Assembly: GCA_020434205.1 (NCBI GenBank)
Contig: JAGRBF010000357.1
Location: forward strand, 1 to 40,338
Source: Calditrichota bacterium
GTDB lineage: Bacteria > Calditrichota > Calditrichia > RBG-13-44-9 > J075
Direction of reading: 5' to 3'
DNA length: 40,338 bases
Position 1 is the first letter of the stretch; the number at the start of each line of letters is the position of its first letter. Position numbers and translations under genes: made by a program. A model generated the notes under the pieces. That model searched no databases. It worked only from the letters and a program-made list of their open reading frames with translations, and was not told the DNA's origin. Shown one piece after another: positions 1 through 26,626 of this stretch.

Positions 1-20
1 AACTGTTTCAATTGACAGAC

Positions 21-910
21 TACTAACCATTGGTGCTAGTTGTTTAAAGGTTGTATTCAGCAATACTCAGAGGGATAAACCCAGCATCATCTGGTTTTAG
101 TCCGTCGAATTGCACCAACAAGTTGAAGGCAGAGACCATAAATGCCAGTCTCATCTTGAAATAGGTCCATTTTCTGTGCATCATTTTTTTGAAATGGCAG
201 ATTAAAGTCAACATTGAGAAAACGGTCTCAACCAACATTCTATCGTTCCAGGTTCCCCTCGGACATAGTTTCAAATTCCTGGGATCACCTGTTTTGGCAT
301 GAAAATGCTGATCTGCAAACACAACCATTTTATCTTCAACCTTTGCGATCAGTGGTTGAAATACTTTGTCAGCGACATTGGCCGTGCTACAATCCCAGTC
401 TACAATGAGGCCGAATTGATTCAGTTGCAGGCAGAATTTTCCACCGACGATCCAGCGATAGTTGGATTTACCTTTCTTGCCAATCTGCTTGGGACTACGG
501 CCTTCCCGAATGGGATGGATTAATTCAATCCCAAAGCTATCGATAACCCCCAGGATGGTGGGTGAGGCAAGAAATCGGTCCGACCAATCCCGATGGGTGG
601 CAAACAAACGGAATAGACGAGTACGTTCCGGTAATTTGGGAAAAAGATGAACCCAATCCCGTTTGAGCCAACGATAGAAAGCACGACAGCCTACTCCTTT
701 GATGGCAAAAAGAATAGCCAGGGTAACAATTTCGCTGGGGTAGAGCTGGCTTTGAGAATGCTTCTTGACCTTATTCATTTGATTATCTATAGTTAGAAAA
801 ATCCGAATGATGAAATCTTCAGTAGGCATGGGGTTTACCTTTCTGTTTGGTCTCTCAACCTTAAGTTAGGTAAATCCTCGCCTACTTTAAACTAGCACCA
901 ATGGTTACTA
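21..910 (-). mobile_element. IS982-family insertion sequence (core 26-905, about 880 bp) with target-site duplication
   Basis: Visibly AT-rich block in a GC-rich window containing a single transposase ORF. Perfect 16-bp terminal inverted repeats ACCATTGGTGCTAGTT (26-41 versus the reverse complement of 890-905), extended by a TTTAAAG block after a 3-nt indel. Flanked by the 5-bp direct repeat TACTA (21-25 and 906-910). Confidence 0.85.
44..829 (-). CDS. DDE transposase, IS982 family
   Basis: 261-aa ORF with an ATG start. From memory it is collinear with the lactococcal IS982 transposase: SEIVTLAILFA...FYRWL...FPKLPERTRLFR, GVIDSFGIEL, GKKGKSNYRWIVGGKFCLQLNQFGLIVDWDCSTANVAD, and a C-terminal ETVFSML...H block. 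It lies between the inverted repeats. Confidence 0.8.
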   Translation of the reverse strand: MPTEDFIIRIFLTIDNQMNKVKKHSQSQLYPSEIVTLAILFAIKGVGCRAFYRWLKRDWVHLFPKLPERTRLFRLFATHRDWSDRFLASPTILGVIDSFGIELIHPIREGRSPKQIGKKGKSNYRWIVGGKFCLQLNQFGLIVDWDCSTANVADKVFQPLIAKVEDKMVVFADQHFHAKTGDPRNLKLCPRGTWNDRMLVETVFSMLTLICHFKKMMHRKWTYFKMRLAFMVSAFNLLVQFDGLKPDDAGFIPLSIAEYNL

Positions 911-1933
911 GGGCAGGTCCGCCACACAGCGAAAGCCGGTGTGGTTAAAGGCGGAATCCCGGGTGGAGCGCATCCGCCGGGCTACCCGGTAGCCGCTGCA
1001 GTAGCTTTCGTTGCACAGAAAAGAACCCCCGCGCATCACGTATTTTTCGGCATAAGGCTCCATGGGGTCGTATGCTTCTTCGGGACCGGCGGGATCCTCC
1101 TGAAGACCAGCCGCCGCGGCAGCAGCGTAGGTGCGCACGTGGTATTTGTCCGCACACCATTCCCACACGTTGCCGGCCATGTCGAACAAACCGTAGCCGT
1201 TGGGGGGAAAGGACTTCACCGGCGCGGTGGCGTAAAAGCCGTCCTCCAGGGCGTTGCGGTAGGGAAACTGCCCCTGCCAGAAATTGGCCTGGGCGGCGGA
1301 GGCCTCAATAGCGGCATTGCCCCAGGGATATTTGGGATCCTCCAGCCCGCCCATGGCCGCCCACTCCCATTCCGCCTCGGTGGGCAGGCGTTTGCCCGCC
1401 CATTTGGCGTAAGCCCCGGCATCGTCCCGGGAAACGTGCACCACCGGATGGTCCATCAGGCTGTCGATGTTGCTGCCGGGGCCGGTAGGGTGGCGCCAAT
1501 CCGCACCGATGGTCCAGGCCCACCACTGCGAAAAATCTTCCGGATTGACCGGACCGTCGGTTTCCCGGAACACCAGGGATCCCGGCTGCAAGAGGGAATC
1601 CGGCGGCCGGGGGGTGTCCGGGGGAAGGGATTGGCGAAGGGTTTCCCAATCCAGGGCCCGCTCCGCTTCGGTGCGATAGCCGGTGGCCTCCGTAAAGGCG
1701 GTAAACTGGCGGTTGGTTACCTCGTGGATATCGATAAAAAAGGGGGAAACCCGCACCGGGTGGCGGGGCAACTCGTCCGGCTGGGCCTGTTCGGACTTGC
1801 CGCCCATCAGAAATTGGCCGCCGGGGATATAAGCCATTCCCGCCGGGGGAAGGGGCGGATCGTCCTGGGCGCCGCAGGCGAGCATCAAACTCAAAAAAAG
1901 GACCGGCAAAATCCGGCTGGCGAAACGTCTCAT
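908..1933 (-). CDS. Formylglycine-generating enzyme (SUMF1/FGE-sulfatase domain) family lipoprotein
   Basis: Motifs GNVWEWCADKY, RGGSFLC, YCSGYRVARR and NHTGFRCV. N-terminus MRRFASRILPVLFLSLMLAC has a lipobox. The ATG at 1933 is preferred over the track's TTG at 1939. The stop codon (908-910) lies inside the IS target-site duplication. Confidence 0.85.
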   Translation of the reverse strand: MRRFASRILPVLFLSLMLACGAQDDPPLPPAGMAYIPGGQFLMGGKSEQAQPDELPRHPVRVSPFFIDIHEVTNRQFTAFTEATGYRTEAERALDWETLRQSLPPDTPRPPDSLLQPGSLVFRETDGPVNPEDFSQWWAWTIGADWRHPTGPGSNIDSLMDHPVVHVSRDDAGAYAKWAGKRLPTEAEWEWAAMGGLEDPKYPWGNAAIEASAAQANFWQGQFPYRNALEDGFYATAPVKSFPPNGYGLFDMAGNVWEWCADKYHVRTYAAAAAAGLQEDPAGPEEAYDPMEPYAEKYVMRGGSFLCNESYCSGYRVARRMRSTRDSAFNHTGFRCVADLP

Positions 1934-2176: not shown

Positions 2177-3568
2177 ATGACTAAAATTCAAAAACTGTCC
2201 GTCTGGGAAAAAGCCGGTTACGGATTCGGCGATCTGGCCTCGGTGCTGTACTGGCAGACCATCAGCGCCTATCTGCTCTATTTTTACACCGATGTTTTCG
2301 GGATTACCGCCGCCGCTGCCGGCACCATGATGCTGATGAGCCGCCTGTGGGACGGGGTCAACGACCCCCTGATGGGCATCCTCGCGGATCGCACCCAAAC
2401 CCGCTGGGGCAAGTTCCGCCCCTATCTGCTGTGGATGGCCGTTCCCCTGGCTATTGCCGGGGTCCTGGCCTTTACCACCCCGGACCTGGACGATTCCGGA
2501 AAGCTGACTTATGCCTACGTCACCTTTTTCCTGCTGATGATGCTTTACACCGCCATCAATATCCCCTATTCTTCCCTGCTGGGGGTGATCACCCCGGACC
2601 CCATCGAACGCACCAGCGTATCGTCCTACAAATACGTTTTTGCCTACATCAGCGGCACCATTGTTTCCGCCCTGGCCCTGCCCATGACCAACTATTTCGG
2701 CCAGGGCGACGAGGCGGCCGGGTGGCAGTGGACCATGGTCATCTTCGGGCTGGCGGCCACCCTCTTTTTTATGATTACCTTTGCCAGCGTGCGGGAACGG
2801 GTTACCCCGCCTAAAAATCAAAAAACCAGCATAGACCGGGACCTGCGGGACTTGCTCAACAACGTTCCCTGGGTGCTGCTGCTGTTCGCCACCCTGCTTT
2901 TTATCCTTTTTGTCGCCACCCGCCTGAGCGTCACCACCCATTATTTCAAATATTTTGTGGGAGAGCAGGAGATTTCCATTCTGGGCTTTTCCGGCAGTTA
3001 CGGTTACGTAGCGCTGACCTCCGCCTTTAACGCCGTCGGCACCTGGGCCGCCATTGTGGGGGTGATCTGCACCAACTACATCGCCGGGTGGATCGGCAAA
3101 AAGCGCGCTTTTCTGATGCTCTTCGTGGTGGCCGCCCTCTCCACCGCCGCCTTTTTCGTGCTGAAGCCGGAGCAGGTGGAGCTGATGTTCGCCCTTCAGG
3201 TAATCGGCTCCTTTACCGGAGGACCGCTCTCTCCCCTTATCTGGGCCATGTATGCCGATGCCGCGGATTATTCGGAATGGAAAACGGGGCGGCGCTCCAC
3301 CGGGCTGGTGTTCTCCGCTTCCACCATGTCTCAGAAATTCGGCTGGGCGATCGGCTCTTACGTGGCGGGAATTCTGCTGAGCTCCTTCGGCTTCGAGGCC
3401 AATATGGAACAGAACGCGGAGGTGCTGTGGGGGCTGAAGGCTCTGATGAGCATTATCCCTGCCGGTGCGGGAGTTCTGGCTATTTTGCTGATTCTTTTCT
3501 ATAATCTGGATGAAGCCAAAATGCAGGAGATTGAGCGGGAGCTGCGGCAACGGCGGGAGGGGGCGTAG
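2177..3568 (+). CDS. Glycoside-pentoside-hexuronide (GPH):cation symporter, MFS superfamily (MelB/YicJ-like)
   Basis: 463 aa and multi-pass hydrophobic. The N-terminus LSVWEKAGYGFGDLASVLYWQTISAYLLYFYTDVFGI and the block RLWDGVNDPLMGILADRT..RWGKFRPY are typical of GPH transporters. Confidence 0.85.
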   Translation: MTKIQKLSVWEKAGYGFGDLASVLYWQTISAYLLYFYTDVFGITAAAAGTMMLMSRLWDGVNDPLMGILADRTQTRWGKFRPYLLWMAVPLAIAGVLAFTTPDLDDSGKLTYAYVTFFLLMMLYTAINIPYSSLLGVITPDPIERTSVSSYKYVFAYISGTIVSALALPMTNYFGQGDEAAGWQWTMVIFGLAATLFFMITFASVRERVTPPKNQKTSIDRDLRDLLNNVPWVLLLFATLLFILFVATRLSVTTHYFKYFVGEQEISILGFSGSYGYVALTSAFNAVGTWAAIVGVICTNYIAGWIGKKRAFLMLFVVAALSTAAFFVLKPEQVELMFALQVIGSFTGGPLSPLIWAMYADAADYSEWKTGRRSTGLVFSASTMSQKFGWAIGSYVAGILLSSFGFEANMEQNAEVLWGLKALMSIIPAGAGVLAILLILFYNLDEAKMQEIERELRQRREGA

Positions 3569-3584
3569 GCGGCAGAGGGAAGAA

Positions 3585-3760
3585 GATCCTGAGATCCGAA
3601 GACCGGAAGACTGGAGGACCGGAGGACCAGAGGACCAATAGACCAATAGACCAATAGAGCAATGGACCAATAGAGCAATGGACCAATAGACCAATAGACC
3701 AATAGACCAATAGACCAAAGGACCAAAAGACCAGAGGATCAAAAGATCAAAAGATCAAAA
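3585..3760 (+). repeat. Tandem array of 22 units of 8 bp (GAYCNNRR; dominant unit GACCAATA)
   Basis: Read directly, with units starting at 3585, 3593, 3601 and so on to 3753. A period of 8 is not a multiple of 3, so the array is non-coding. Confidence 0.95.
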
Positions 3761-3794
3761 GTTTGAAAGACTATTGGAAAAGCGAAAAGAAGGC

Positions 3795-3864
3795 AATCGC
3801 TGATCGCTTCTCGCTGATCGCCCATCGCCTTTCGCTGGTCGCTAATCGCTGATCGCTAATCGCC
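3795..3864 (+). repeat. Tandem array of 10 units of 7 bp (NNTCGCY; for example AATCGCT and GATCGCT)
   Basis: Read directly: aatcgct gatcgct tctcgct gatcgcc catcgcc tttcgct ggtcgct aatcgct gatcgct aatcgcc. Confidence 0.9.
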
Positions 3865-3922
3865 GCAGGCGATAACCATGTAACCATTTAACCATTATCA
3901 GTCATCAACCATTGGAACCCTT
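3859..3922 (+). promoter_or_regulatory. Conserved hairpin (ATCGCC-GCA-GGCGAT, 3859-3873) plus 8-nt-periodic TAACCNTK leader ending at the start codon
   Basis: The block ATCGCCGCAGGCGATAACCATGTAACC (3859-3885) is identical to the reverse complement of 13433-13459. It is followed by taaccatg taaccatt taaccatt ... aaccattggaaccctt ATG. Confidence 0.6.
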
Positions 3923-4915
3923 ATGACATATCAACCCGGCAATAATCGTTACGATACCATGCGCTACAATCGCAGCGGACGCAGCGGACTCAAACTGCCC
4001 GCCATATCCCTGGGACTCTGGCACAATTTCGGGGAGGTCGACCTCTTCGAAAACTGCCGCAAGATGGTGCGCGGGGCTTTCGATTTGGGCATCACCCATT
4101 TCGATCTGGCCAACAACTACGGCCCTCCCCCCGGCTCCGCAGAGGAAACCTTCGGACGCCTGCTGAAAAAGGACCTGTACCCCTATCGGGATGAACTGAT
4201 TATCTCCAGCAAGGCCGGCTATCTGATGTGGGACGGTCCCTACGGGGATTTCGGGTCCCGCAAATACCTGGTGGCCAGCCTGGACCAGAGCCTCAAGCGC
4301 ATGGGTCTGGAATACGTGGATATTTTCTACCACCACCGTCCCGATCCCGATACCCCGCTGGAAGAGACCATGGGCGCCCTGGACTATATCGTGCGCAGCG
4401 GGCGGGCCCTCTACGCCGCGGTCTCCAACTACCCGGCCGATCTGGTGAAACGAGCCGCGGAGATCCTGCGGGATCTGGGCACCCCCTGCCTGATCAATCA
4501 GCCGGTTTACAATATGTTCAATCGCTGGATCGAACCCGAATTGCTGGACGAACTGGAACGGCAGGGAATGGGCTGCATCGTCTTTTCCCCCCTGGCGCAG
4601 GGCATGCTAAGCGACAAGTATCTGAAGGGCATTCCCGGGGATTCCCGGGCCGCCAAATCCCACGGATTCCTGAAGAAATCGGCCATTACCGAGGCCCGCC
4701 TCAGCCAGATCTCCCGGCTGAACGACCTGGCGGCGCAGCGCGGACAAACCCTGGCGCAGATGGCCCTGGCCTGGGTGTTGCGCCACCCGGGGATGACCTC
4801 CGCCCTCATCGGCGCCAGCCGCATCAGCCATATTGAAGACGCGGTCAGCGCCCTGCAGAACCTGGCCTTTTCGGATGAAGAGCTGGGCCGGATCGACGCG
4901 ATTTTGGGAGAATGA
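3923..4915 (+). CDS. yghZ: Aldo-keto reductase, YghZ/Gpr-like (L-glyceraldehyde-3-phosphate reductase family)
   Basis: 330 aa, collinear from memory with E. coli YghZ: SGLKLPAISLGLWHNFG, AFDLGITHFDLANNYGPPPGSAEE.FGRLL, YRDELIISSKAGY, GSRKYL.ASLDQSLKRMGLEYVDIFY.HR and MALAW.L....VTS.LIGASR. Confidence 0.9.
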   Translation: MTYQPGNNRYDTMRYNRSGRSGLKLPAISLGLWHNFGEVDLFENCRKMVRGAFDLGITHFDLANNYGPPPGSAEETFGRLLKKDLYPYRDELIISSKAGYLMWDGPYGDFGSRKYLVASLDQSLKRMGLEYVDIFYHHRPDPDTPLEETMGALDYIVRSGRALYAAVSNYPADLVKRAAEILRDLGTPCLINQPVYNMFNRWIEPELLDELERQGMGCIVFSPLAQGMLSDKYLKGIPGDSRAAKSHGFLKKSAITEARLSQISRLNDLAAQRGQTLAQMALAWVLRHPGMTSALIGASRISHIEDAVSALQNLAFSDEELGRIDAILGE

Positions 4916-8308: not shown

Positions 8309-9331
8309 TCAGACCTGAGAATTTTCCTTCACAAAAGCGATCAGCTCATCCACCCGGGCAAAAGCCACCGCGGTGTAGGTATCGGCCGCCCCGTAATAGA
8401 TGGCGATCCGCCCGGTTTCGGCATCGGCCAGGGTGGCGCAGGGAAAGGCCACATTGGGCACAAATCCGGTGGTTTCGTAATCCGCCTCGGGGGTCAGGAT
8501 GTAATCCCGGGTGCGGTAAAGCACCTTGCTGGGATCGTCCAGATCCAGCAGGGCGGCGCCCATGCTATACACAAAACCGTTGCAGGTGGTGGTTACCCCG
8601 TGGTAGATCAGCAGCCAGCCTTCGGTGGTTTCGATGGGCACCGGACCGGCCCCGATTTTGGTGGATTCCCACCAGCTTTCCACCCCGCGGGACATCACAT
8701 GGCGGTGTTTGCCCCAGTAGACCAGATCCGGACTGTGGCTGAGGACGATATCGCCGAAGGGGGTATGGCCGCTGTCGCTGGGGCGGCTGAGCAGCACATA
8801 CAGACCGTTGATCTGCCGCGGAAAGAGCACCCCGTTGCGGTTAAAGGGGAAGGTGGGATTTTCCAGCTTCACAAAGGTTTTGAAATCGCGGGTCATCCCC
8901 ATTCCGATGGAGGGGCCGGGGAAATCGTCGCACCAGTTGATGTAATAGGCGTCGCCCAGTTTAAGCAGGCGGGGATCGTAGGCGTAGCCGTTTTTCACCG
9001 CCTCCCCGGCCTCGTTAACCCACTTGATGCGCTCGGGGCGGATGTCCCATTTCAGGGCATCCTCGCTGGTGCCGAAATACAGCTGGGGTTTGGCGTTTTT
9101 TTCGTCGGCCCGGAAAATGCCGACAAACCCGCCCTGGTAGGGAATAACCGCGCTGTTAAAGATGCGGGCCGCGGCCGGAACGGGATTCCACCCGATGATG
9201 GGATTGCCGCTGTAGCGCCACACCACCTGATGGCAGCCGGCCGGTTTGTCCTCCCAGGGGATGTTGGGAAGAGCGGTGCCGTTAACAATCCGGGCGCCGG
9301 TTTTTGGGGACTTGGTAGCATTGGTGCTCAT
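8309..9331 (-). CDS. GH130 beta-1,4-mannoside phosphorylase (mannosylglucose/mannooligosaccharide phosphorylase family)
   Basis: 340 aa with no signal peptide. Blocks FNRNGVLFPRQINGLYVLLSRPSD, KIGAGPVPIETTEGWLLIYHGV, MGAALLDLDDPSKV, GFVPNVAFPC and IYYGAADT match recalled GH130 sequences such as TM1225. Confidence 0.8.
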   Translation of the reverse strand: MSTNATKSPKTGARIVNGTALPNIPWEDKPAGCHQVVWRYSGNPIIGWNPVPAAARIFNSAVIPYQGGFVGIFRADEKNAKPQLYFGTSEDALKWDIRPERIKWVNEAGEAVKNGYAYDPRLLKLGDAYYINWCDDFPGPSIGMGMTRDFKTFVKLENPTFPFNRNGVLFPRQINGLYVLLSRPSDSGHTPFGDIVLSHSPDLVYWGKHRHVMSRGVESWWESTKIGAGPVPIETTEGWLLIYHGVTTTCNGFVYSMGAALLDLDDPSKVLYRTRDYILTPEADYETTGFVPNVAFPCATLADAETGRIAIYYGAADTYTAVAFARVDELIAFVKENSQV

Positions 9332-9377
9332 GTAAAAATTCCTGGTTGGTTGTTGGGGTTACAGGGTTGCATGGTTA
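9332..9377 (-). promoter_or_regulatory. Third copy of the TAACCNTG-periodic leader module, filling the GH5-AGE / GH130 intergenic gap
   Basis: Minus-strand read: TAA TAACCATG CAACCCTG TAACCCCA ACAACCAA CCAGGAAT TTTTAC ATG. The first 22 nt differ at 1 position from the module at 13412-13444. Confidence 0.5.
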
Positions 9378-11702
9378 TTAAGGCGCCTTTTCCAGCATTT
9401 CAATACAGCGAATAAGGGCCCGGATGTTGTGGTAATTGACCTTCCAGTCGCGCGCTTTGGGAGCCCGGATTTGTCCGGGACTTTGGTCCAGTCCTTCTTC
9501 GTACCAGCCGCCGTTCACCTTGTCGATCAGGTAGCTGTCTATATAGCGCCATTCGCTCTCAAAAGCGGCCTGGTAGCGCGCTTCGTCCGGATAAAGGCGG
9601 CTCATCAGCAGAAAAGCATTGAGGGCTTCCGCCTGCACCCACCAGGTTTTCACCTCATCGATAATGGAAATGGGACCGTTTTCCTCGAGGTAATAGCCCT
9701 GGTAAAAGAGTCCCCCGTTTTTGAAATCCCACCCGTTGCCCAGGGCATGGTCCACCATTTTCCGGGCAACCTTTGCGGTGCGGGCATCATTTTCCATCCC
9801 CAGCACCGCGGCCGCCTCCAGCATCAGGAAGGCGGTCTCGACATCGTGCCCAAAGCTGACGTGATCGTAATATTTATTGGCCATACGTTCCGCTTCACTG
9901 GCCTGGCGGAAGGACACCGGGGTCCAGTCGCGCTCCAGAAAGAGGGTCAGATACCCTTTTTCGGTGGTGATGGTATCCCGGATGAGGGTCAGGATTTCCA
10001 GCAGGCGCTCGCGCAGGGTGGGGTCCGGCCATACCTGATACAGGGCGGTGTAGGCTTCCAGGATGTGAATGGAGGAATTCTGATCCTTCCAGGGCGCTTC
10101 CTTGCGGGGGTGGCCTTTGAGAAAGGACCAGGAGCCGTCCCGTTCCAGAATATCGATATAGCCGCCTTTTTCCGGATCCCGGCTGTGTTGGTCCAGCCAG
10201 GCGAAGGTTTTTTGGGCCAGTTCCAGGGCCTGCGGATCTTGGGAAACGGTGAAGTAAGCCGACAGGGCGTAAATGGCAAAGGCATTGCTGTAAGCGGTTT
10301 TGGCGCCACCGTCCCCGGCTGCTTCTCCCTTGCGGTTGCGCAGAAAATAAAAGCCGCCGTATTGGGCATCCCACATTTTGTCCCGCAAAAAGCGAAAACC
10401 GTGCGTGGCGATTTCCCGGTAGCGATCGTCCTGATAAAACAGGGCCAGTTGCGAGGCGCTCCACACGTGGCGGGTCTGGGAAACCAGCATCTTGTTCTGA
10501 GCGCCGGCGGGCTGCCAGCGATAGTCAAAATCGCTCAGAAAACCGCCGTCGCTTTTGTCCAGGGTGCGGGGATACCAGGCCCTGACCACGTATTGCTGCA
10601 GAGAATTTTTCAGCTCTGCGACCAAAGCCTTGCGGCCTGTTTCTGCGGCGGCTTCCGCGTTGTTCAGTTTCATCATTTTGTCCCGGAAAAAGGTGCCCTG
10701 GCGGGTCGGCTCAAAGGTCCAGTCGCGGATCAGTTGGGGCGACCATTGGGGATCGAACACCCAGGCGGTCCAGGAAATACCCTTGCGATCGAAAAAGCCG
10801 ATAATGGCCTCGCCGTAGCTTTCATCCCCGATCACCGGGATGTGCGCCCCGCGCTCCCCGCTGCTCATAAAGCCGAACTCCGTGGCCATCAGCGGATAAG
10901 TATCCGCCGCGAATCCCCAGCTTTCCTCCCATTTGTCCTCCCAGGGTTGGGAGCGCTTTTGGGGATAGGGATGGGTTACGTAGGCCACCCCCGGAAAATC
11001 GATAGGGTCGTAGCGCAGGAAGGACAGATCGTATCCCCAATTGAGCCCGGCTACCAGGGGAATGGCCTCCGGATTGATGGCGTAGATCATCGCGATCAGA
11101 TCTTCCATCAGGGTTTTGTGCTGGGCCCAGGTGTATTTCCCCAGTTTCCCCTCATATTGGGTGGGTTCGTTGAAAAGCTCGTAAAAGGCCACGGTGGGAT
11201 TACCGGCATAGCGGGTGGCGATGGTTTGCCAGAAGCGAAAGGTTTCGGTTTGGGTGGTGTTGTACATCGGCAGAAAAAACACCTCGGTGCGCAGATTGCC
11301 GATGGAATGCCAGTCAATAATCACGTGCATCCCAAGCTCTTCCGCCCAGGCCACTCCCTGGTCGATCAGCCGGAGGTAATCCTCCGGGCCGCGCTCCCGC
11401 CAGGCGCTGGGGTGTACCGGAAAACGCACCACGTTGGCGTGCCAGTCTTTGGCGGCCTGGAAGTAGGCCTTATTCCAGCGCTTTTCCTTTTCCAGCTTGT
11501 CCGGATCGGAGAAGGAGACCCCGCGGAACACCACCGGATTGCCCTGACTGTCGACAAATTGATTGCCCTCTACCTTAATCCGGGAGAGGGGGGCGCTTTT
11601 TTCCTGAGGCAAGACGCTTGTCGCCAGAGCGATGATCAGGAAAAGCGGCAAAAGATTTTTTATGGTGCTGAAGCAATTTGCGATCATGATCTTGTCCGTC
11701 AT
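9378..11702 (-). CDS. Bifunctional-looking exported protein: N-terminal GH5 domain fused to a C-terminal AGE-superfamily (cellobiose 2-epimerase / N-acylglucosamine 2-epimerase-like) domain
   Basis: Hydrophobic N-terminus LLPLFLIIALATSVLPQ. GH5 part (about aa 40-345, nt 10668-11585) with ELFNEPT and MATEFGF. AGE part (about aa 350-774, nt 9381-10655) with QNSSIHILEAY, SFGHDVETAFLMLEA and KTWWVQAEALNAF. The start overlaps the upstream stop as ATGA. Confidence 0.75.
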   Translation of the reverse strand: MTDKIMIANCFSTIKNLLPLFLIIALATSVLPQEKSAPLSRIKVEGNQFVDSQGNPVVFRGVSFSDPDKLEKEKRWNKAYFQAAKDWHANVVRFPVHPSAWRERGPEDYLRLIDQGVAWAEELGMHVIIDWHSIGNLRTEVFFLPMYNTTQTETFRFWQTIATRYAGNPTVAFYELFNEPTQYEGKLGKYTWAQHKTLMEDLIAMIYAINPEAIPLVAGLNWGYDLSFLRYDPIDFPGVAYVTHPYPQKRSQPWEDKWEESWGFAADTYPLMATEFGFMSSGERGAHIPVIGDESYGEAIIGFFDRKGISWTAWVFDPQWSPQLIRDWTFEPTRQGTFFRDKMMKLNNAEAAAETGRKALVAELKNSLQQYVVRAWYPRTLDKSDGGFLSDFDYRWQPAGAQNKMLVSQTRHVWSASQLALFYQDDRYREIATHGFRFLRDKMWDAQYGGFYFLRNRKGEAAGDGGAKTAYSNAFAIYALSAYFTVSQDPQALELAQKTFAWLDQHSRDPEKGGYIDILERDGSWSFLKGHPRKEAPWKDQNSSIHILEAYTALYQVWPDPTLRERLLEILTLIRDTITTEKGYLTLFLERDWTPVSFRQASEAERMANKYYDHVSFGHDVETAFLMLEAAAVLGMENDARTAKVARKMVDHALGNGWDFKNGGLFYQGYYLEENGPISIIDEVKTWWVQAEALNAFLLMSRLYPDEARYQAAFESEWRYIDSYLIDKVNGGWYEEGLDQSPGQIRAPKARDWKVNYHNIRALIRCIEMLEKAP

Positions 11703-13405
11703 TTTTGTCGCTTGATAATGCAGGCCAGGTCCCGTTCGAAGGAGGCTACCGCCAGGCGCAGTTGCCCGTCTTCACCCACCCGGACCTTTTCGGTTTTGCC
11801 CATAAAAGTACCGCTTTGCGGATCGTACCAGCGCACCTCATAGGCGCCGGGCAGCATCCCGGGAATCTCCTGGGTAAAGTCCCCCACCTGCTCGAGCTGA
11901 TGCCCTTCGCTGACCATCGACCACTGGTAGTTGAGGTTCTTCATCCACAAAGCGGCATCCGCTCCGGCGTAGATGGCCCGGATAAAGCCGAAGACCTGCT
12001 CGTCCGGTTTGGCCGCCAGGCGCCCCGGCACCAGGGTTTGGAATTTCAGGTGGGCCTGGCCGAAGTCCAGCTCCCCGGCAAAACGGGCCAGGTCCCCGAA
12101 CTTGTGCCACAGATCGAGCGGATCGATGTAGTTGTCCCACCACCAGCTCATGGGAATCACCGGGGTTTCGCTGAACCACCCCGCCCAGATGCTGTTGTGC
12201 AGGCCGATATGCTGGGAATCCGCTTTGGCGGTGCGATCGGCCCCCCGGTATTCCACCCCGAACTCGCCGATCACCATCGGTTTCTGATAAAAATCCACCG
12301 CCATTTCGTGAATATCCACCATGTGAGGGGCCATGTTGAGGGCGTTGTAAATATGAAACATGGCGTAGTCCATCGCGGGGGACCGGAAAGCGTCCGCCAC
12401 CTTTTCCGGATAATTGCGGGTGGCGCTGGTGGAAACCAGCCGTTGGTGCACATCCACCGACTTGATGAACTCGGCCATTTCGATATGCCAGCGGTTCATG
12501 GGAATAGCCTGCCCGGCCATCAGGTCCGCTTCGTTGTAGAACTCCCAGGTGCCCAGACTGGGGCTATGCCCAAAGCGGGAGACGATGTATTTGTATTTGC
12601 GTTTGAAATGTTCGATCGCCACCGCATTGGTAAACAGCTCTTTGCCGTCCGTGCAGGGGCCCCCGTTGATTTTATTGTAGGGACTGTCCAGCCAGCGGTT
12701 TTCCCGGAAAAAACCCTGTCCCTTCTGGGCAATACCGTGATAATCCAGGCACAGCATCACCGCGATGCCATATTGTTCCGCCAGTTCCAGAATCCCGTCC
12801 AGGCGGCGGGCGCTTTCCAGATTGTAAACCCCCAGCCCGGTTTCCTGCCATTCGAAGGAGAGGTTCCAGGGGCACATCCAGATCCGGGTGATATTGGCCC
12901 CGTTTTCCTTCATCTTGCGGAAGTAATGCTCGTAATTATCGGTCCAGCACACGTTCAGTCCGATGCCCCGAAAGGTTTCCCCGTTTTCGTAGGCAAAGGT
13001 GGCGTTATCATCGGCCAGCACCAGTCCGCCGCGCACCCCGGGAGCGCTGTTTTGAACCGGGATCGAGAAGGCAGCGCGTTTTTCGCCGTTTATAATGATG
13101 TTGAAGGCGTGCTCCCCGGCCTGTTTGGGGGCGAAGCGCGCCTCCCACTGCTCCCTTCCCGCCTCATTTTTGCCGTCGTAAAAGAAGGACAGGCTGAGGG
13201 TGGTCAGATCCGGCTGGCGAATTTCCAGCTCTATCTGATTGCTGCGCAGGTCGAAGGGATTTTCGAAACCCAGGTTTTCCTGAAAACGGATTACCAGCGT
13301 TTCAAATTTTTTGCCTTTGGCCGGTTTTTCCAGGGATTCAATGGCCCCGGAAACATTTCCCGCCAGGCAAACGCTCAATATCATCAACAAAAACACTCTG
13401 ATCAT
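11699..13405 (-). CDS. Secreted clan GH-A glycoside hydrolase (GH5-like, mannanase/cellulase type) with N-terminal Ig-like (DUF5060-like) domain
   Basis: Signal peptide MIRVFLLMILSVCLAGNVSG. Acid/base-like WEFYNEAD and nucleophile-like VIGEFGVEY. The ATG at 13405 follows a GAGGTG Shine-Dalgarno, and the track's GTG at 13411 lies inside that Shine-Dalgarno. Confidence 0.7.
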   Translation of the reverse strand: MIRVFLLMILSVCLAGNVSGAIESLEKPAKGKKFETLVIRFQENLGFENPFDLRSNQIELEIRQPDLTTLSLSFFYDGKNEAGREQWEARFAPKQAGEHAFNIIINGEKRAAFSIPVQNSAPGVRGGLVLADDNATFAYENGETFRGIGLNVCWTDNYEHYFRKMKENGANITRIWMCPWNLSFEWQETGLGVYNLESARRLDGILELAEQYGIAVMLCLDYHGIAQKGQGFFRENRWLDSPYNKINGGPCTDGKELFTNAVAIEHFKRKYKYIVSRFGHSPSLGTWEFYNEADLMAGQAIPMNRWHIEMAEFIKSVDVHQRLVSTSATRNYPEKVADAFRSPAMDYAMFHIYNALNMAPHMVDIHEMAVDFYQKPMVIGEFGVEYRGADRTAKADSQHIGLHNSIWAGWFSETPVIPMSWWWDNYIDPLDLWHKFGDLARFAGELDFGQAHLKFQTLVPGRLAAKPDEQVFGFIRAIYAGADAALWMKNLNYQWSMVSEGHQLEQVGDFTQEIPGMLPGAYEVRWYDPQSGTFMGKTEKVRVGEDGQLRLAVASFERDLACIIKRQK

Positions 13406-13453
13406 CGACACCTCAATTAGACAGGGTTACAGGGTTACATGGTTATCGCCTGC

Positions 13454-13509
13454 GGCGATGGGCGAATAGCGAGAAGCGAATAGCGAGAAGCGATCAGCGA
13501 TCAGCGATT
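13454..13509 (-). repeat. Tandem array of 8 units of 7 bp (plus strand RGCGANN, the complement of the NNTCGCY units in copy 1)
   Basis: Read directly: ggcgatg ggcgaat agcgaga agcgaat agcgaga agcgatc agcgatc agcgatt. Confidence 0.9.
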
Positions 13510-13532
13510 GTCTTTTTCTCGCTTTTCCAAGA

Positions 13533-13660
13533 GTCTTCCGGTCTTCCGGTCTTCCGGTCTTTTTGTCCTCTGGTCCTCTGGTCTATCAGTCTTCCGGTCT
13601 TCCGGTCTTCCGGTCTTTTTGTCCTCTGGTCTATCAGTCTTCCCGTCTTCGGATCTTCTT
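13533..13660 (-). repeat. Tandem array of 16 units of 8 bp (plus strand GTCTTCCG / GTCCTCTG / GTCTATCA / GTCTTTTT) with a higher-order repeat
   Basis: Read directly. Units 13533-13588 (7 units) and 13589-13636 (6 units) repeat the same order: 3 x GTCTTCCG, GTCTTTTT, 1-2 x GTCCTCTG, GTCTATCA. Confidence 0.95.
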
Positions 13661-13663
13661 CCC

Positions 13664-16165
13664 CTAATTCCCCTCCTGCAACAGGGCCTCCCCGGCCAGG
13701 GTCAGGAACATAAAATGGGTGGCGCCCCCGCCGATCACGTATTCGGTCTGATGCCAGAAGAACGGCCATTTTTTCAACTCCGGCAAATCCGGCCGCACCA
13801 ACCCCGTGCCGGAAACCACCCCGCCGGGGATGTAAGACCAGTCGGCCCGGTTGGTCCCGTAGGCGATCTCCACGGACTCCCCCCCAACCCCGGAAACAAA
13901 GGATGCGTGGTTATCCCCGGGATGGACGCCCAGCATAAAATTGAGCGCGTTAAAGACCGGCTCCCGGGAAAAGCGCTCCGGCCAGGCGCGGTGCAAATAA
14001 TAATACTGCATGGCAAAACGCTGGATGTCCCAGCCGGGGCCCCAAATGCGCGGGCGATAGGGCACCCCGTAAGGATTGCGATCCATTTCTTCCTGGAGCT
14101 TCCGGGCGGCATCTCCCGCCGCAGTGCTGATCTTTTCCCGAAAATCGGGGTTTTGCAGGCGCGGCCACACTCTGGCGATCAGCCAGCCCAGGCGCTCAAA
14201 CTGCCCCGCAATAATCTCGCCCTGTGCTTCGATGGCCTCCCGGTACTGCGCCTTGCCGGTGGTCAGGAGTAATTCGCAGGAGGCCTCGACCCGTGCCGCG
14301 GCAAATTCCGGGCGACCGGCATAGCTCTCCCAGATCTTTTCGGCGATGGCGAGGGTCTCCCGGGACAGGTCGCGATTGTAGTTCTGCATCACCCGCACCG
14401 CGGCAGCCAGGCAGGCGGCCACATAGAGCTCCCGGCCGGGATTCTCCTCGGTAAACACCCGCCGGTCGTCGTTGCGGCCGGAGCGTTGCCCCAGCATTTC
14501 TCCGGGCCGCAGGGTGCTGTCGAAATTCAGGTTATCGGTCATCACCGAGCCGTCGCCCAGCAGGACGTACTGGCGCAAATCCGGACAGATGATCCCGCGG
14601 TACAGGCGGCCCAGATTGCGATATCCGCCGACGATACTGAGCAGCCCGTGCTCGATCTGCTGCAAAATATCCAGTTTGCCATCCGGGCGGTGCAGTTCCA
14701 CCAGACGCGCCTGCTGGTCCACGGTGGTCTGATCGTAATGGACCCCGAATGCCTCGCGCATCAGGGCCAGCACCCGCACCGTTCCGGCCTGGGATTCCAC
14801 CCGCAGGTCGTAATCGCCGGCATCGTGCCATCCCCCGCGATCCAGCCCCGGGACATGCTGGCCGGATTCATAACGGGTCAGGGTGGAAGGCCCCTGGCGG
14901 TAGCCGTCGAAATGCAGGGTATCGGTATCCGCCATCAGGGCGTCGTCGAGATGACAGACCCCGTGCCAGACCCGGTAGCGGTCGTTGATGCGCATGTGGC
15001 ACATTTGCACCGGCAGGAAGTAGGCCAGAGTGGGCTGCCAGACGTGGCGCTCCAGAACCTGCGGGTCGATGCGAAAGGGATGGGATTGGATATTGCCGTA
15101 ACTGATCCGGTAAGTGCCCGGCTCTTCAACATTGGAGAAATCGAAGGTTTTGTACTGATAGCGCAGGAATTTTCCCCAGGAGGCCGGCTGGCGACGGATT
15201 ATGGCTTTAGCCTCTCCCGAGGCGGCAATACGCCACAGGGTCACCTCCGGCTCCCCTTCCTCCCTGGCATCGCATTCGATAACCGCCACCTTGCTCTGGC
15301 GGGGATGATATCCCAATTGAGAAAGCTGGATCTGAGGCGGGTAACGCCAGCCGGGAACGGTATGGGCGGAAATACGCCAGCGAATCGCCCCTTCTGTGGC
15401 GCCGGAGGGAATGGGGCCGCGCACGATAAACCAGCCGTTGTTGTGGTGAGCTCTGCCGTCCAGCAACTCCAGCTGACCGCTTTGGGCGGTGATGGTGAGG
15501 CGTTGCAGGGGGTTTTCCGGGGCCACGGTCAGGCTTTTTCCGGTGGCGAGGGGGGCCACTTCCCAGGTATCCGGATCCTGGCCCGGCACCATCGGCCCGT
15601 TCAACTGGCGCGGAAAAAGGCCGCCCCGCTGGTCCATCTGATAGGTTTTGCCGAAGAGGTCGGTGGGAAAAAGCTCCAGATTAAAACCGACCTTCCCGAT
15701 CCACCCTTCCGGTAGCGGCTGGTCGAGGTCTACGGAAATCAGGATATCCGGACCTTCGGCTTTCAGGGAGATGCGGTAGGAAAAGTTTAAGTCGGGATAA
15801 GTGATGGGGTTAAATCCCTTGCGATCCAGATCCGGATTGGGATAGCTGCCGGGCACGGTAATGCGGTTGTTATCCCGGTCTATCTGCGGCTCGCCGATTT
15901 TCGGCACCGGCTGCCACTGGCCGGGAGCGGGCTCCAGGCGCACGTCCCCGTTGGCGGCCACCCGGGATCCGTGCTGGATAAGGGTGATCCCGCCCTGGTG
16001 CCCCTCGGGATAAATATCCTGAAAGGCCATGACGTTCAGGCCCGGCATCTCGAAATAACCCAGGTCGTTCAGGCGCAGCCCGTCCTGCCCTAACAAACAG
16101 GAAATTTGTAACAGCAGGGCCAGGAGAACCGCTATCCCGGACACCCTTTTTTCACTTCGGATCAT
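13664..16165 (-). CDS. Secreted GH9-family glycoside hydrolase with N-terminal Ig-like domain
   Basis: 833 aa with signal peptide VSGIAVLLALLLQISCLLGQ. GH9 signature DRGGWHDAGDYDLRV and a C-terminal QTEYVIGGGA resembling the catalytic-Glu block. The size fits Ig-like plus (alpha/alpha)6 GH9 enzymes. Confidence 0.7.
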   Translation of the reverse strand: MIRSEKRVSGIAVLLALLLQISCLLGQDGLRLNDLGYFEMPGLNVMAFQDIYPEGHQGGITLIQHGSRVAANGDVRLEPAPGQWQPVPKIGEPQIDRDNNRITVPGSYPNPDLDRKGFNPITYPDLNFSYRISLKAEGPDILISVDLDQPLPEGWIGKVGFNLELFPTDLFGKTYQMDQRGGLFPRQLNGPMVPGQDPDTWEVAPLATGKSLTVAPENPLQRLTITAQSGQLELLDGRAHHNNGWFIVRGPIPSGATEGAIRWRISAHTVPGWRYPPQIQLSQLGYHPRQSKVAVIECDAREEGEPEVTLWRIAASGEAKAIIRRQPASWGKFLRYQYKTFDFSNVEEPGTYRISYGNIQSHPFRIDPQVLERHVWQPTLAYFLPVQMCHMRINDRYRVWHGVCHLDDALMADTDTLHFDGYRQGPSTLTRYESGQHVPGLDRGGWHDAGDYDLRVESQAGTVRVLALMREAFGVHYDQTTVDQQARLVELHRPDGKLDILQQIEHGLLSIVGGYRNLGRLYRGIICPDLRQYVLLGDGSVMTDNLNFDSTLRPGEMLGQRSGRNDDRRVFTEENPGRELYVAACLAAAVRVMQNYNRDLSRETLAIAEKIWESYAGRPEFAAARVEASCELLLTTGKAQYREAIEAQGEIIAGQFERLGWLIARVWPRLQNPDFREKISTAAGDAARKLQEEMDRNPYGVPYRPRIWGPGWDIQRFAMQYYYLHRAWPERFSREPVFNALNFMLGVHPGDNHASFVSGVGGESVEIAYGTNRADWSYIPGGVVSGTGLVRPDLPELKKWPFFWHQTEYVIGGGATHFMFLTLAGEALLQEGN

Positions 16166-25196: not shown

Positions 25197-25367
25197 TAGC
25201 ATTTTTTGATTTTTTTCTGAAAAAGACTCTGGAAGGAAAGCTGTAACGGCAAAAATTTTGTGAATTCTTTTATATAAAATCAAAACAAACAGTATTTTAA
25301 AAGACTTACCGCCAAACACCTTTCGGGAGAACCAAGCCTCCCTGGGCGTGAACGATGCTCCCGGACC

Positions 25368-25385
25368 TTCGAATTTTTTTTCGAA
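25368..25385. promoter_or_regulatory. Second TTCGAA-N6-TTCGAA site (TTCGAATTTTTTTTCGAA), possible autoregulatory operator
   Basis: Same hexamer spacing as the 18-bp palindrome, about 180 nt upstream of the LacI ATG. Further TTTTCGAAAA palindromes occur at 25377-25388 and 25419-25428, and a TTCGAA at 25518-25523. Confidence 0.4.
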
Positions 25386-25567
25386 AAAGGATTGCGTGGT
25401 ATTCCGAAAATGTGCTTATTTTCGAAAAAGTTTCGTAGATTCTGGCCGATTTTATGGGTACCGTGGGCTTTCGTCACCAAAAACAGCCCTGAGATCAACC
25501 CTACGACCCAAAACCGGTTTCGAAGGACCGGGATTGAGCGTTTAACTGTCCGGAAAGAGTACCCCCC

Positions 25568-26626
25568 ATGAAAAACCCGCTGACGATTAAGGATATTGCC
25601 CGGCTTGCCAATGTCTCCCAATCCACCGTCTCCAAGGCGCTCAACAACCGCCACGACGTCAGCCCCAAAACCAAAGAACGTATTCTGGAAATTGTCAGTC
25701 AGCACAATTTTATCCCGGATGCCTCCGGCAAGGCGCTCAAAAATCGCTATACCAACAACATCGGGGTTATTTTTCGCAAGGACGACAACCCCCTGCGCAA
25801 CCCCTTCTTTTCCCGGGTGCTGGAAGGCATCGAGGCGGAAATCGCCTTCAACGAATACAACCTGATCCTCTACCTGATGCCGGATCACAAAAAACCCGGC
25901 CTGCCCAAAATGGTTCAGCAGCGCCAGGTGGACGGCATTATCCTGGTGGGCACCCAGAGTCCCGATTTTGTGGACACCCTGCGCGAAGCAGGAATTCCCA
26001 CGGTGCTCATCGATCCGCGCGCCCATATCCCCAGCCGCCCCCAGGTGCTCATCGACAACGAAAACGGGGCCTTTCTGGCCACCCGCCACCTCATCGAACA
26101 CGGCCACCGCAAGATCGGCTTTATCGCCGGGGAACTCAGCATCCCCAGCTTCCAGCAGCGCCTGGACGGATACAAAAAAGCCCTCACCTATTACGGGATT
26201 CCCATAACCAAATCGCTGATCAAATGCGGCGGATATGAGGAAGGCTACCGCTTTACCCGCGATTTGTTACAGGACGCGGTAAACCGGCCCACTGCCATCT
26301 TTGCGGCCTACGACATCAACGCCATCCACGGCTATCGGGCCATTTACGAAGCCAACCTGCGCATTCCGGACGATATCAGCTTCGTGGGTTTCGACGATAT
26401 CGACCTGGCGCGCATGGCCAGTCCCCCGCTCACCACCATCCGGGTCTACAAGGAGGAACTGGGATCGGTGGCGGTGCGCAACCTGCGGTCCATTCTCCTG
26501 GGGGAAACCCCGCCCTCCACCACCTCCATCATCCCGGTAAAACTGGTGGAGCGGGATTCGGTTCGCAGCGTGGAAGTCCAGCAGGAATCCGCCCCGGCCA
26601 GGCAGGCCAGCGCCAAAAAAATCTAG
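25568..26626 (+). CDS. LacI/GalR-family transcriptional regulator
   Basis: N-terminal helix-turn-helix TIKDIARLANVSQSTVSKALNN, followed by a periplasmic-binding-protein-like sugar-binding core (VDGIILVG, HRKIGFIAG, SFVGFDD). Confidence 0.9.
   Translation: MKNPLTIKDIARLANVSQSTVSKALNNRHDVSPKTKERILEIVSQHNFIPDASGKALKNRYTNNIGVIFRKDDNPLRNPFFSRVLEGIEAEIAFNEYNLILYLMPDHKKPGLPKMVQQRQVDGIILVGTQSPDFVDTLREAGIPTVLIDPRAHIPSRPQVLIDNENGAFLATRHLIEHGHRKIGFIAGELSIPSFQQRLDGYKKALTYYGIPITKSLIKCGGYEEGYRFTRDLLQDAVNRPTAIFAAYDINAIHGYRAIYEANLRIPDDISFVGFDDIDLARMASPPLTTIRVYKEELGSVAVRNLRSILLGETPPSTTSIIPVKLVERDSVRSVEVQQESAPARQASAKKI

Follow-up and report, generated by a model that had tools for sequence, protein, structure and literature searches.

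The stretch of DNA considered here (the window, 40,338 nt of contig JAGRBF010000357.1 from the Calditrichota bacterium assembly GCA_020434205.1) carries a co-directional string of genes for polysaccharide utilisation, which comprises a TonB-dependent receptor, proteins tagged for the type IX secretion system (T9SS), a GH5 and a GH9 glycoside hydrolase, a GH5-like protein, a GH5/epimerase, GH130 and GH1 proteins and a sodium:solute symporter. A 258-nt mosaic of short tandem repeats occupies the complete gap between the GH9 gene and the GH5-like gene, and Pfam assignments for both neighbours bear out the claim of an earlier note on this DNA that the element splits the glycoside-hydrolase run at that point. 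The ATG of the GH5-like gene at 13405 was also chosen by gene callers in 10 assemblies, giving a product of 568 aa, and the closest homologue of this protein (61% identity) is named candidate division KSB1, while the record names of the matching assemblies point to activated-sludge-type (wastewater-type) metagenomes.

The mosaic is described on the minus strand, its sense strand at this position, because the genes flanking it are on that strand. Read in this direction it consists of a stop codon, a 5' anchor, an array of 8-mers (array A), a linker, an array of 7-mers, a hairpin, a second 8-mer array (array B), a ribosome-binding site and the ATG (Table 1). Array B is made up of three TAACCNTG units placed directly 3' of the hairpin with its GCA loop, and the hairpin is itself tied to the neighbouring repeats, in that the final 7-mer, ATCGCCG, doubles as its 5' arm and its 3' arm is an inverted copy of that same 7-mer. 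The element in the GH9/GH5-like gap is referred to as copy 2; a further full copy (copy 1) and a fragment are found elsewhere in the window.

Table 1. Positions of the mosaic element, its modules and the adjoining genes in the window (open reading frame, ORF; Tandem Repeats Finder, TRF)
Feature	Position	Strand	Description
Copy 1 of mosaic	3577-3896	+	between MFS_2 transporter gene 2177-3568 and aldo-keto reductase gene 3923-4915
Copy 1 array A	3585-3776	+	24 units, dominant unit GACCAATA
Copy 1 linker	3769-3795	+	4 mismatches in 27 nt relative to copy 2
Copy 1 7-mer array	3796-3865	+	10 units
Copy 1 hairpin	3859-3873	+	same module as in copy 2
Copy 1 array B	3873-3896	+	same module as in copy 2
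Partial third copy, array B only	9354-9377	-	TAACCATG CAACCCTG TAACCCCA; TRF, pattern search
GH5-like gene	11699-13405	-	Pfam; DUF5060, signal-peptide-like N-terminus; downstream of copy 2
Leader	13403-13421	-	TCTAATTGAGGTGTCG; Shine-Dalgarno-like GAGGTG, then ATG of GH5-like gene
Copy 2 array B	13422-13445	-	TAACCATG TAACCCTG TAACCCTG; TRF (13421-13445) and pattern search
Copy 2 mini-hairpin	13445-13459	-	ATCGCC-GCA-GGCGAT; 6-bp stem, GCA triloop; 19-mer shared exactly with copy 1
Copy 2 7-mer array	13453-13508	-	8 units N-TCGC-Y-N; TRF periods 7/14/21
Copy 2 linker	13509-13535	-	GACTCTTGGAAAAGCGAGAAAAAGACA; 23/27 nt identical to copy 1 3769-3795
Copy 2 array A	13528-13655	-	128 nt, 16 head-to-tail units, GAC-N5 register; TRF and unit parse
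Super-unit 2	13533-13588	-	56 nt, 7 units
Super-unit 1	13589-13636	-	48 nt, 6 units; equals super-unit 2 minus one CAGAGGAC
Copy 2 5' anchor	13651-13663	-	GGGAAGAAGATCC; directly after GH9 stop TAG (13664-13666); identical 13-mer at 3577-3589
GH9 gene	13664-16165	-	Pfam; CelD_N domain; upstream of copy 2

The unit order that the earlier note gave for the plus strand of array A can be read directly from the sequence at 13533-13660, where a first series of three GTCTTCCG, one GTCTTTTT, two GTCCTCTG and one GTCTATCA is followed by a second of three GTCTTCCG, one GTCTTTTT, a single GTCCTCTG and one GTCTATCA, and then by three degenerate units, GTCTTCCC, GTCTTCGG and ATCTTCTT. On the sense strand the array accordingly starts with GATCCGAA and GACGGGAA, continues with super-unit 1 (GACTGATA GACCAGAG GACAAAAA and three copies of GACCGGAA) and super-unit 2 (GACTGATA, two copies of GACCAGAG, GACAAAAA and again three of GACCGGAA), and ends with GACTCTTG. 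Its description as two iterations of an ordered super-unit consequently stands, the two iterations differing solely by the one additional unit. Tandem Repeats Finder reported the array at period 8 (15.8 copies, score 105), at period 48 (2.5 copies, 87% matches, score 173) and at period 56 (2.3 copies, score 189), and a repeat search of the window recovered it as a 12-member family spaced at 8 nt. The array is far longer than random expectation, which excludes a chance origin, and since there are zero point differences between the super-units the duplication of the block must be recent. We conclude that one very recent duplication of a block produced the 48/56-bp higher-order repeat.

Copy 1 has the same layout in the same orientation to its flanking genes. 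The two full copies match at 13/13 nt in the 5' anchor and at 27/27 nt over the hairpin block ATCGCCGCAGGCGATAACCATGTAACC, and they have the boundary unit types GATCCGAA, GACCGGAA and GACCAGAG in common, whereas the dominant unit of array A is GACCAATA in copy 1 and GACCGGAA in copy 2, so that different dominant units lie between near-identical blocks, as had been noted before. The 19-mer hairpin anchor occurs twice in the window against 0.01 occurrences expected by chance. The linker segment TCGCTTTTCCAA is exact in both copies and has one further match with 1 mismatch at 38995-39006, to be read against a chance expectation of 0.25 matches in the window at no more than 1 mismatch. The partial third copy follows immediately on the stop codon of GH5/epimerase, the gene upstream of it, and is separated by 22 nt from the ATG of GH130; it keeps the same orientation to the genes, with the consequence that array B precedes a third start codon. 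It should also be mentioned that copies 1 and 2 (3577-3896 and 13412-13663) form inverted repeats of about 300 bp, 72-83% identical, around 9.5 kb; inversion between them was considered and rejected, as every spanning assembly has the arrangement of the window. As a separate observation, the ATG within TAACCATG at the third site (9329-9377, minus strand) starts a 14-codon upstream ORF that ends in a TGA overlapping the ATG of GH130 (ATGA), an arrangement suggestive of translational coupling, and in copies 1 (3878-3883) and 2 (13434-13439) the ATG of TAACCATG stands directly before TAA and forms a start-stop pair.

Comparison of close strains for unit-number polymorphism, a check proposed in the earlier note, gave a positive result for both full copies. 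Many independently made assemblies were located by way of the exact proteins that flank the two copies, and all are 99.5-100% identical to the window. The gap holding copy 1 measures 354 nt in the window and in four other assemblies (L078, L083, L084, L088) and 346 nt in three (L079, L082, L087), the sole difference being four versus three GACCAATA units. Copy 2 is represented by an identical 258 nt in 6 spanning assemblies, and a variant of it occurs in L034 (a Logan contig, SRR776449) and L035 (a contig of GCA_035427005.1), which read GACGGGAA GACTGATA GACCAGAG GACCAGAG GACAAAAA and onwards, with two CAGAGGAC units where the window has one, before both contigs stop inside the array. Since the distinguishing bases of this variant are all contained in one 31-mer, it is a real allele. 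There are hence at least three haplotypes among strains that are less than 0.5% different elsewhere, and every change falls in a homogeneous run of array A, with no variation in the 7-mer array, the hairpin or array B. The claim that the arrays change faster than their surroundings is supported by these whole-unit differences amid flanks that are 99.5-100% identical. Contigs of many assemblies terminate inside the arrays. Contig ends were furthermore seen at about 4092-4273, within the aldo-keto reductase gene, where six contigs of different assemblies (L067, L070, L079, L082, L083, L084) end from both sides and four others span the stretch; the breaks there may reflect a paralogous stretch or strain variation.

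While the number of units varies, parts of each unit do not. Among the 17 distinct 8-mer types found over both copies, G-A at positions 1-2 is essentially invariant and position 8 is always a purine, whereas positions 4-7 are freely variable. Likewise TCGC is present in 12/12 distinct 7-mer types, in which positions 1 and 7 have an entropy of 1.7-2.0 bits, and the units of array B always keep AACC. By a rough equal-rate estimate for the heptamer core across the 12 types, the chance of four contiguous positions escaping at least 11 random substitutions is about 6e-4. Such a pattern is not what unit-wise homogenisation alone would yield, and a core every 7-8 nt followed by a free spacer resembles, and so hints at, a periodic recognition motif. 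The sites of TRAP, the heptads of the omega repressor and the metboxes of MetJ are periodic sites of this core-plus-spacer kind, and serve here as leads only. The cores, as seen in two related copies, are the main argument for the element being more than junk and suggest as much; they are also the one suggestive signal in favour of the idea, put forward in the earlier note, that the element may be a functional scaffold with a variable-length module. The related claim that the anchors are under constraint fares less clearly, since the invariant cores and the perfect hairpin block agree with it, but a recent common origin of the two paralogous copies explains much of the similarity. Two other readings of recurring letters were rejected, namely AACC as a general translation signal, which is enriched solely in the three leaders with array B, and the clustering of GATC as a Dam-type switch, as GATC is frequent throughout the genome and the unit sequences themselves account for its excess in the element.

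The 6-bp hairpin is the only helix retained in both the minimum free energy and the centroid RNA folds, and as DNA it has a folding energy of -5.4 kcal/mol (z = -3.5). A promoter scan of both copies found no sigma-70-type promoter in 13300-13800 or 3450-4000, and no terminator-like site was found on the sense strand of either copy; copy 1 has a single weak one on the antisense strand, no more than shuffled sequences give. Sigma-70-like promoters (TTGGCA-N18-TATATT at 1940-2176) are in use in this organism, as are Shine-Dalgarno sites. Lacking both a promoter and a terminator, the element is most probably transcribed within the operon mRNA. An intrinsic terminator or attenuator was rejected, because the hairpin precedes AACCATG and has no U-run on the sense strand, and so was an assignment to repetitive extragenic palindromic (REP) sequences or bacterial interspersed mosaic elements (BIME), since the hairpin has 15 nt, against an imperfect palindrome of about 20-40 nt in those elements, and is preceded by CTA or CCC and not by GTAG. 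Rfam 15 at the gathering score gave no match in the window and nothing meaningful at five related loci, scans of both copies by E-value returned noise only, no tRNA or tmRNA was found in the window, and there is no Y1 transposase among the 20 window proteins scanned.

Arrays of 7-8-nt repeats between bacterial genes have been catalogued for decades, and we know of no function or binding partner that has been established for them. The present element belongs to this known class of intergenic simple-sequence-repeat arrays with units of 5-11 nt, which includes the long simple sequence repeats (LSSR), the short tandemly repeated repetitive (STRR) sequences of cyanobacteria and the TAACTGA repeats, since it has head-to-tail units of that size beyond chance, is placed between co-oriented ORFs and differs by whole units between close genomes. 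It is set apart within the class by the fixed order of its three arrays, its conserved linkers and its hairpin. In general plan it also recalls the pneumococcal BOX elements (boxA-(boxB)n-boxC) and the enterobacterial BIME/REP, which are intergenic and frequently intercistronic composites with conserved ends and variable internal modules, contain hairpins, are co-transcribed and can affect mRNA stability. There is however no sequence similarity to either, the internal modules are 7-8 nt here as opposed to about 45 nt in boxB, and the 15-nt hairpin comes with no GTAG motif and no long palindrome.

Long simple sequence repeats of 5-11 nt have been described as sporadic, with heptamers the commonest and their prevalence attributed to polymerase slippage (Mrazek et al. 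2007, as cited in PMC4679880), and as far as that summary goes they share with our element the tandem 7-8-nt units, the intergenic placement, the sporadic phylogeny, the whole-unit length changes and the proposed role of slippage. Such repeats have one pure unit, whereas here the units vary around an invariant core, and three arrays in fixed order are joined by conserved linkers and a hairpin into a composite that occurs at least 2 times. The TAACTGA heptamer repeats (MacGregor 2015, PMC4679880) are found in Beggiatoaceae, Cyanobacteria and Bacteroidetes, directly upstream of start codons, at distances from a few to tens of nucleotides, including those of ribosomal-protein operons; they show indels in steps of 7 nt between Cyanothece strains and mixed heptamer assemblages in near-identical intergenic regions of some Bacteroidetes, and in Elizabethkingia contigs end within such assemblages, as they do in the arrays studied here. 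A post-transcriptional binding factor (S1, Csp or CsrA) has been proposed for them but is unproven (PMC4679880). Array B, with its three TAACCNTG units, holds the same place before the start codon and shares TAAC..TG, and in both cases short direct repeats stand in forward orientation upstream of starts, also inside operons. The unit sequence and length are different though (8 nt in two of our arrays), the long arrays lie more than 100 nt from the start codon, and the gene downstream of copy 2 has a normal Shine-Dalgarno sequence. Heptamer repeats were reported to lie preferentially between aligned ORFs and to be transcribed, and the G-rich GGGNATC repeats of Xanthomonas and Nostoc to occupy the antisense strand at most 50 bp ahead of an ORF (Rehm et al. 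2015, PMC4692102). Our element resembles these and the STRR in having repeats in the 6-9-nt range between co-oriented ORFs in variable unit number, and the antisense strand of array B reads CAGGGTTA three times; unlike GGGNATC, array B has two or three G-tracts and hence no four-tract G-quadruplex motif, and the main arrays are not G-rich. Finally, in the 5' untranslated region (UTR) of Haemophilus influenzae hmw1A/hmw2A the repeat (ATCTTTC)n pairs with a G-rich tract in a long hairpin cleaved by RNase III, and its length in hmw1A sets expression inversely and in a graded manner (PMC12721329). Both cases concern a variable-number repeat of short units, presumably transcribed in ours, ahead of a gene that encodes a secreted or surface protein, but no long repeat-containing hairpin is predicted here.

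On balance we favour the explanation that array A is a module whose unit number varies through slippage, within a co-transcribed intercistronic mosaic of the LSSR/STRR type which possibly acts as a binding platform or spacer. The mosaic would be a multi-copy, lineage-specific composite of GAC-N5 8-mers, N-TCGC-Y-N 7-mers, TAACCNTG 8-mers, a linker and a GCA-triloop hairpin. The evolutionary part of this explanation we hold with high confidence. Unit number would change through slipped-strand mispairing or unequal exchange between homogeneous runs, and GACCGGAA holds a self-complementary CCGG, neighbouring copies of which pair as CCGG-AAGA-CCGG in single-stranded DNA on both strands (z = -3.6 and -3.95), so CCGG mini-hairpins may stabilise slipped intermediates and thereby aid expansion. 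The arrays also appear to have grown outward from local sequence, given that the 7-mer equals the 5' arm of the hairpin and that array B begins inside the 3' arm. The functional part is tentative and, judged from the cores, less likely than not: GA(C), TCGC and AACC, recurring every 7-8 nt, may be offered to a single-strand-binding or multimeric nucleic-acid-binding factor, or alternatively the arrays may simply be spacer sequence with no structure. The 5' context of the downstream cistron would be set by the hairpin together with the TAACCNTG units, and gains or losses of units would adjust expression by degrees and not turn it on or off.

Several observations weigh against this explanation. 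Folded as RNA over the whole element, neither the two copies nor the antisense strand do better than shuffles (z = +0.27, -0.16 and -0.26), by which a structured RNA and a long hairpin like that of hmw are rejected. No candidate binding protein for the cores was identified. Three relatives (about 60% protein identity) have no arrays at the orthologous locus, which makes the element dispensable for the operon, and because synteny differs in these relatives the boundaries of an insertion could not be defined. The count of two full copies and one fragment refers to roughly 50 kb of this genome, including 10 kb besides the window in which there were no additional copies, and with two full copies to compare, common descent could account for part of the conservation seen in anchors and cores. 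In addition the differing assemblies stem from few projects and are not independent lineages, and the copy 2 variant could have arisen through loss of the first super-unit (a 48-bp deletion) or through an 8-bp insertion. The element is, in any case, lineage-specific and sporadic.

Part of this evidence is equally what one would expect of a neutral or selfish repeat, that is, dispersed junk akin to REP, to miniature inverted-repeat transposable elements (MITE) or to STRR, with the arrays as slippage by-products around a stable mini-hairpin, which would have no host role and be tolerated because intercistronic spacers are permissive. The absence from relatives at the locus, the lack of structure, promoter, terminator or Rfam family, the pure arrays that the same heptamers form in unrelated bacteria (see below), the ascription of heptamer prevalence to polymerase slippage in the summary cited above, and the apparent local growth of the 7-mers and array B from the arms of the hairpin are all in agreement with it. 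Invariant 4-nt cores with near-random spacers are however unexpected from unconstrained duplicate-and-mutate evolution, both full copies and the fragment face the same way with respect to their genes, and the 27-nt hairpin block is perfect while the linker has accumulated its 4/27 mismatches, so that although a neutral origin is the most serious of the alternatives, we regard it as rather unlikely.

Less satisfactory still is the suggestion of the earlier note that this is a contingency locus, here in the form of a volume control in which unit number alters expression of the GH5-like gene after the model of the hmw1A 5'-UTR. Unit-number polymorphism is indeed present, the array lies in the probable 5' untranslated or intercistronic RNA of the downstream gene, and graded control by a transcribed heptamer repeat has a precedent (PMC12721329). 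The array is however non-coding, situated more than 120 nt upstream of the start codon between co-oriented minus-strand ORFs and deep within a co-directional gene string; an 8-nt unit in an untranslated spacer causes no frameshift; and with the array neither within an ORF nor between the elements of a promoter, the classical mechanisms of contingency loci are not applicable. There is likewise no promoter whose spacing the array could alter, no terminator on the sense strand and no long hairpin pairing the repeats with a complementary tract (z about 0), the neighbours are enzymes of a carbohydrate-catabolic operon and not the usual surface, restriction-modification or virulence genes, and the identical copy 2 allele in six spanning assemblies makes the variation modest. 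The contingency reading thus finds no support; the element is not an on/off contingency switch, and graded control of this sort is improbable.

The arrays might also be operators in double-stranded DNA, with the 7-bp N-TCGC-Y-N and 8-bp AGAC-N4 units bound by a cooperative repressor of the ribbon-helix-helix type. The models for this are the heptads WATCACW of the omega repressor of pSM19035 and the 8-bp metboxes AGACGTCT of MetJ, and our units are similarly contiguous with a conserved 4-nt core and free flanks, while the runs of 8-10 direct heptads, in which the final heptad pairs with an inverted one (ATCGCCG C AGGCGAT), recall omega operator layouts. The two heptads of the hairpin are nevertheless 1 nt apart and not contiguous, 16-24 units far exceed known operators, no promoter lies in or beside the arrays, no ribbon-helix-helix domain is present among the 20 window proteins scanned, and MetJ and omega come from other lineages, all of which renders operator arrays very improbable. 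Mis-assembly of a simple repeat as the source of the higher-order repeat or the polymorphism deserves practically no credence, for while contigs frequently break in the arrays, the identical 258-nt copy 2 comes from six spanning assemblies that differ in assembler, sample and project, the GACCAATA run with its 32 nt fits inside the k of 141 that record names give for the assemblies showing three units, and the bases that distinguish the copy 2 variant fall inside a single 31-mer.

The locus is a compact test case, with three arrays of invariant cores in fixed order and orientation, two paralogous copies, and natural alleles one unit or one 48/56-bp block apart in strains that show no other differences. 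Should a protein read the cores, or should array length tune enzyme stoichiometry in this cellulose/mannan-utilisation operon, a function would be at hand for widespread arrays, and should there be none, the element would be a clean example of hairpin-assisted slippage. As a practical warning, such elements fragment metagenome assemblies.

The 19-mer hairpin anchor ATCGCCGCAGGCGATAACC was scanned against 185,579 species genomes and the metagenomes of the Joint Genome Institute (JGI), scans in which the source species itself gave no match. Most of the 63 matches are coding and lie in exonuclease III-like and phosphoesterase genes, and these are coding coincidences, since the 19-mer encodes V-I-A-C-G-D. 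Several are non-coding and adjoin 7-8-nt arrays and other mini-hairpins. A contig of a Ruminiclostridium metagenome-assembled genome (MAG), CANRGJ010000003.1, has two such loci, L029 (1-8000, which holds the atp operon) and L012 (4290-4570), with five copies, and the gaps of the atp operon hold mosaics with the hairpin variants ATCGCC-GAA-GGCGAT-ACC, ATCGCCGCAGGCGATACC and CTCGCCGCAGGCGACACC, which keep a GNA loop and an ACC tail; one of the five copies at L029 is inverted relative to the genes. The Ruminiclostridium gaps further contain heptamer arrays of TGACAGT/GTACAGT and their reverse complements, AACTAAC and ACTTTTC, as well as mini-hairpins with 3-4-nt loops, among them the same hairpin as in the window and loops of the GCGAAGC type, and because the flanking arrays are mutual reverse complements each element is a long imperfect palindrome. 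In an unrelated metagenomic lineage the 19-mer hairpin is found in L037 (about 940-1020), where it sits between rplM (the L13 gene) and the next gene, in L041 (about 717-800) and in L051 (about 1960-2045); TTCG-N3 heptamers and the hairpins TCCCGA-TTTA-TCGGGA and CTCAAAC(G/T)GACC-NNN-GGTC(C/A)GTTTGAG adjoin it in these three. A Treponema MAG (L026) possibly holds a further non-coding site.

From these matches one might construe the mosaic as a member of a cross-phylum intercistronic class of mini-hairpin plus short repeat, with a module TCGCC-GNA-GGCGA followed by (T)A(A)CC on the sense strand, or as a degenerate pattern TCGCCGNAGGCGAYA(A)CC, a reading we consider doubtful. The recurrence of the 19-mer may be a coincidence within a very large class of mini-hairpins. 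If it were not, a conserved cellular machine or a horizontally moving factor would recognise the hairpin, the candidates being a transposase of single-stranded DNA or an RNA-processing enzyme whose substrate is a minihelix with an ACC(A) tail, and the hairpin would be what nucleates the arrays. Neither the hairpin nor (GACCGGAA)3 gave a match in viral scans, nor did plasmid blastn with the core of the Ruminiclostridium element, and plasmid blastn with copy 2 found generic heptamer arrays only. Pure arrays of (GATCGCT)9 at L099 599-663 (Agrobacterium salinitolerans pDG3-1g) and of (CTTCTCG)9 at L100 585-649 (Burkholderia arboris pla_2), both unannotated, match the two unit types mixed in the 7-mer array of the window, and their presence on these replicons shows that such heptamers arise readily elsewhere.

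Apart from the mosaic, a small insertion sequence (IS) lies at the start of the window (20-911). It is bounded by terminal inverted repeats of 22 bp (20-41 and 890-911), encodes a DDE transposase on the minus strand (ORF 44-829; Pfam DDE_Tnp_1_3) and has 45% G+C as compared with about 58% elsewhere. Other assemblies of the same strain align only from 906 on and have ROF and MarR genes in its place, which makes this a strain-specific insertion. Divergent from the gene string of the TonB-dependent receptor is a 352-aa ORF at 25568-26626 on the plus strand, which the gene tables of L033 and L034 give as a LacI-family regulator, and the minus-strand ORF at 25280-26107, which has no Pfam match, is probably spurious.

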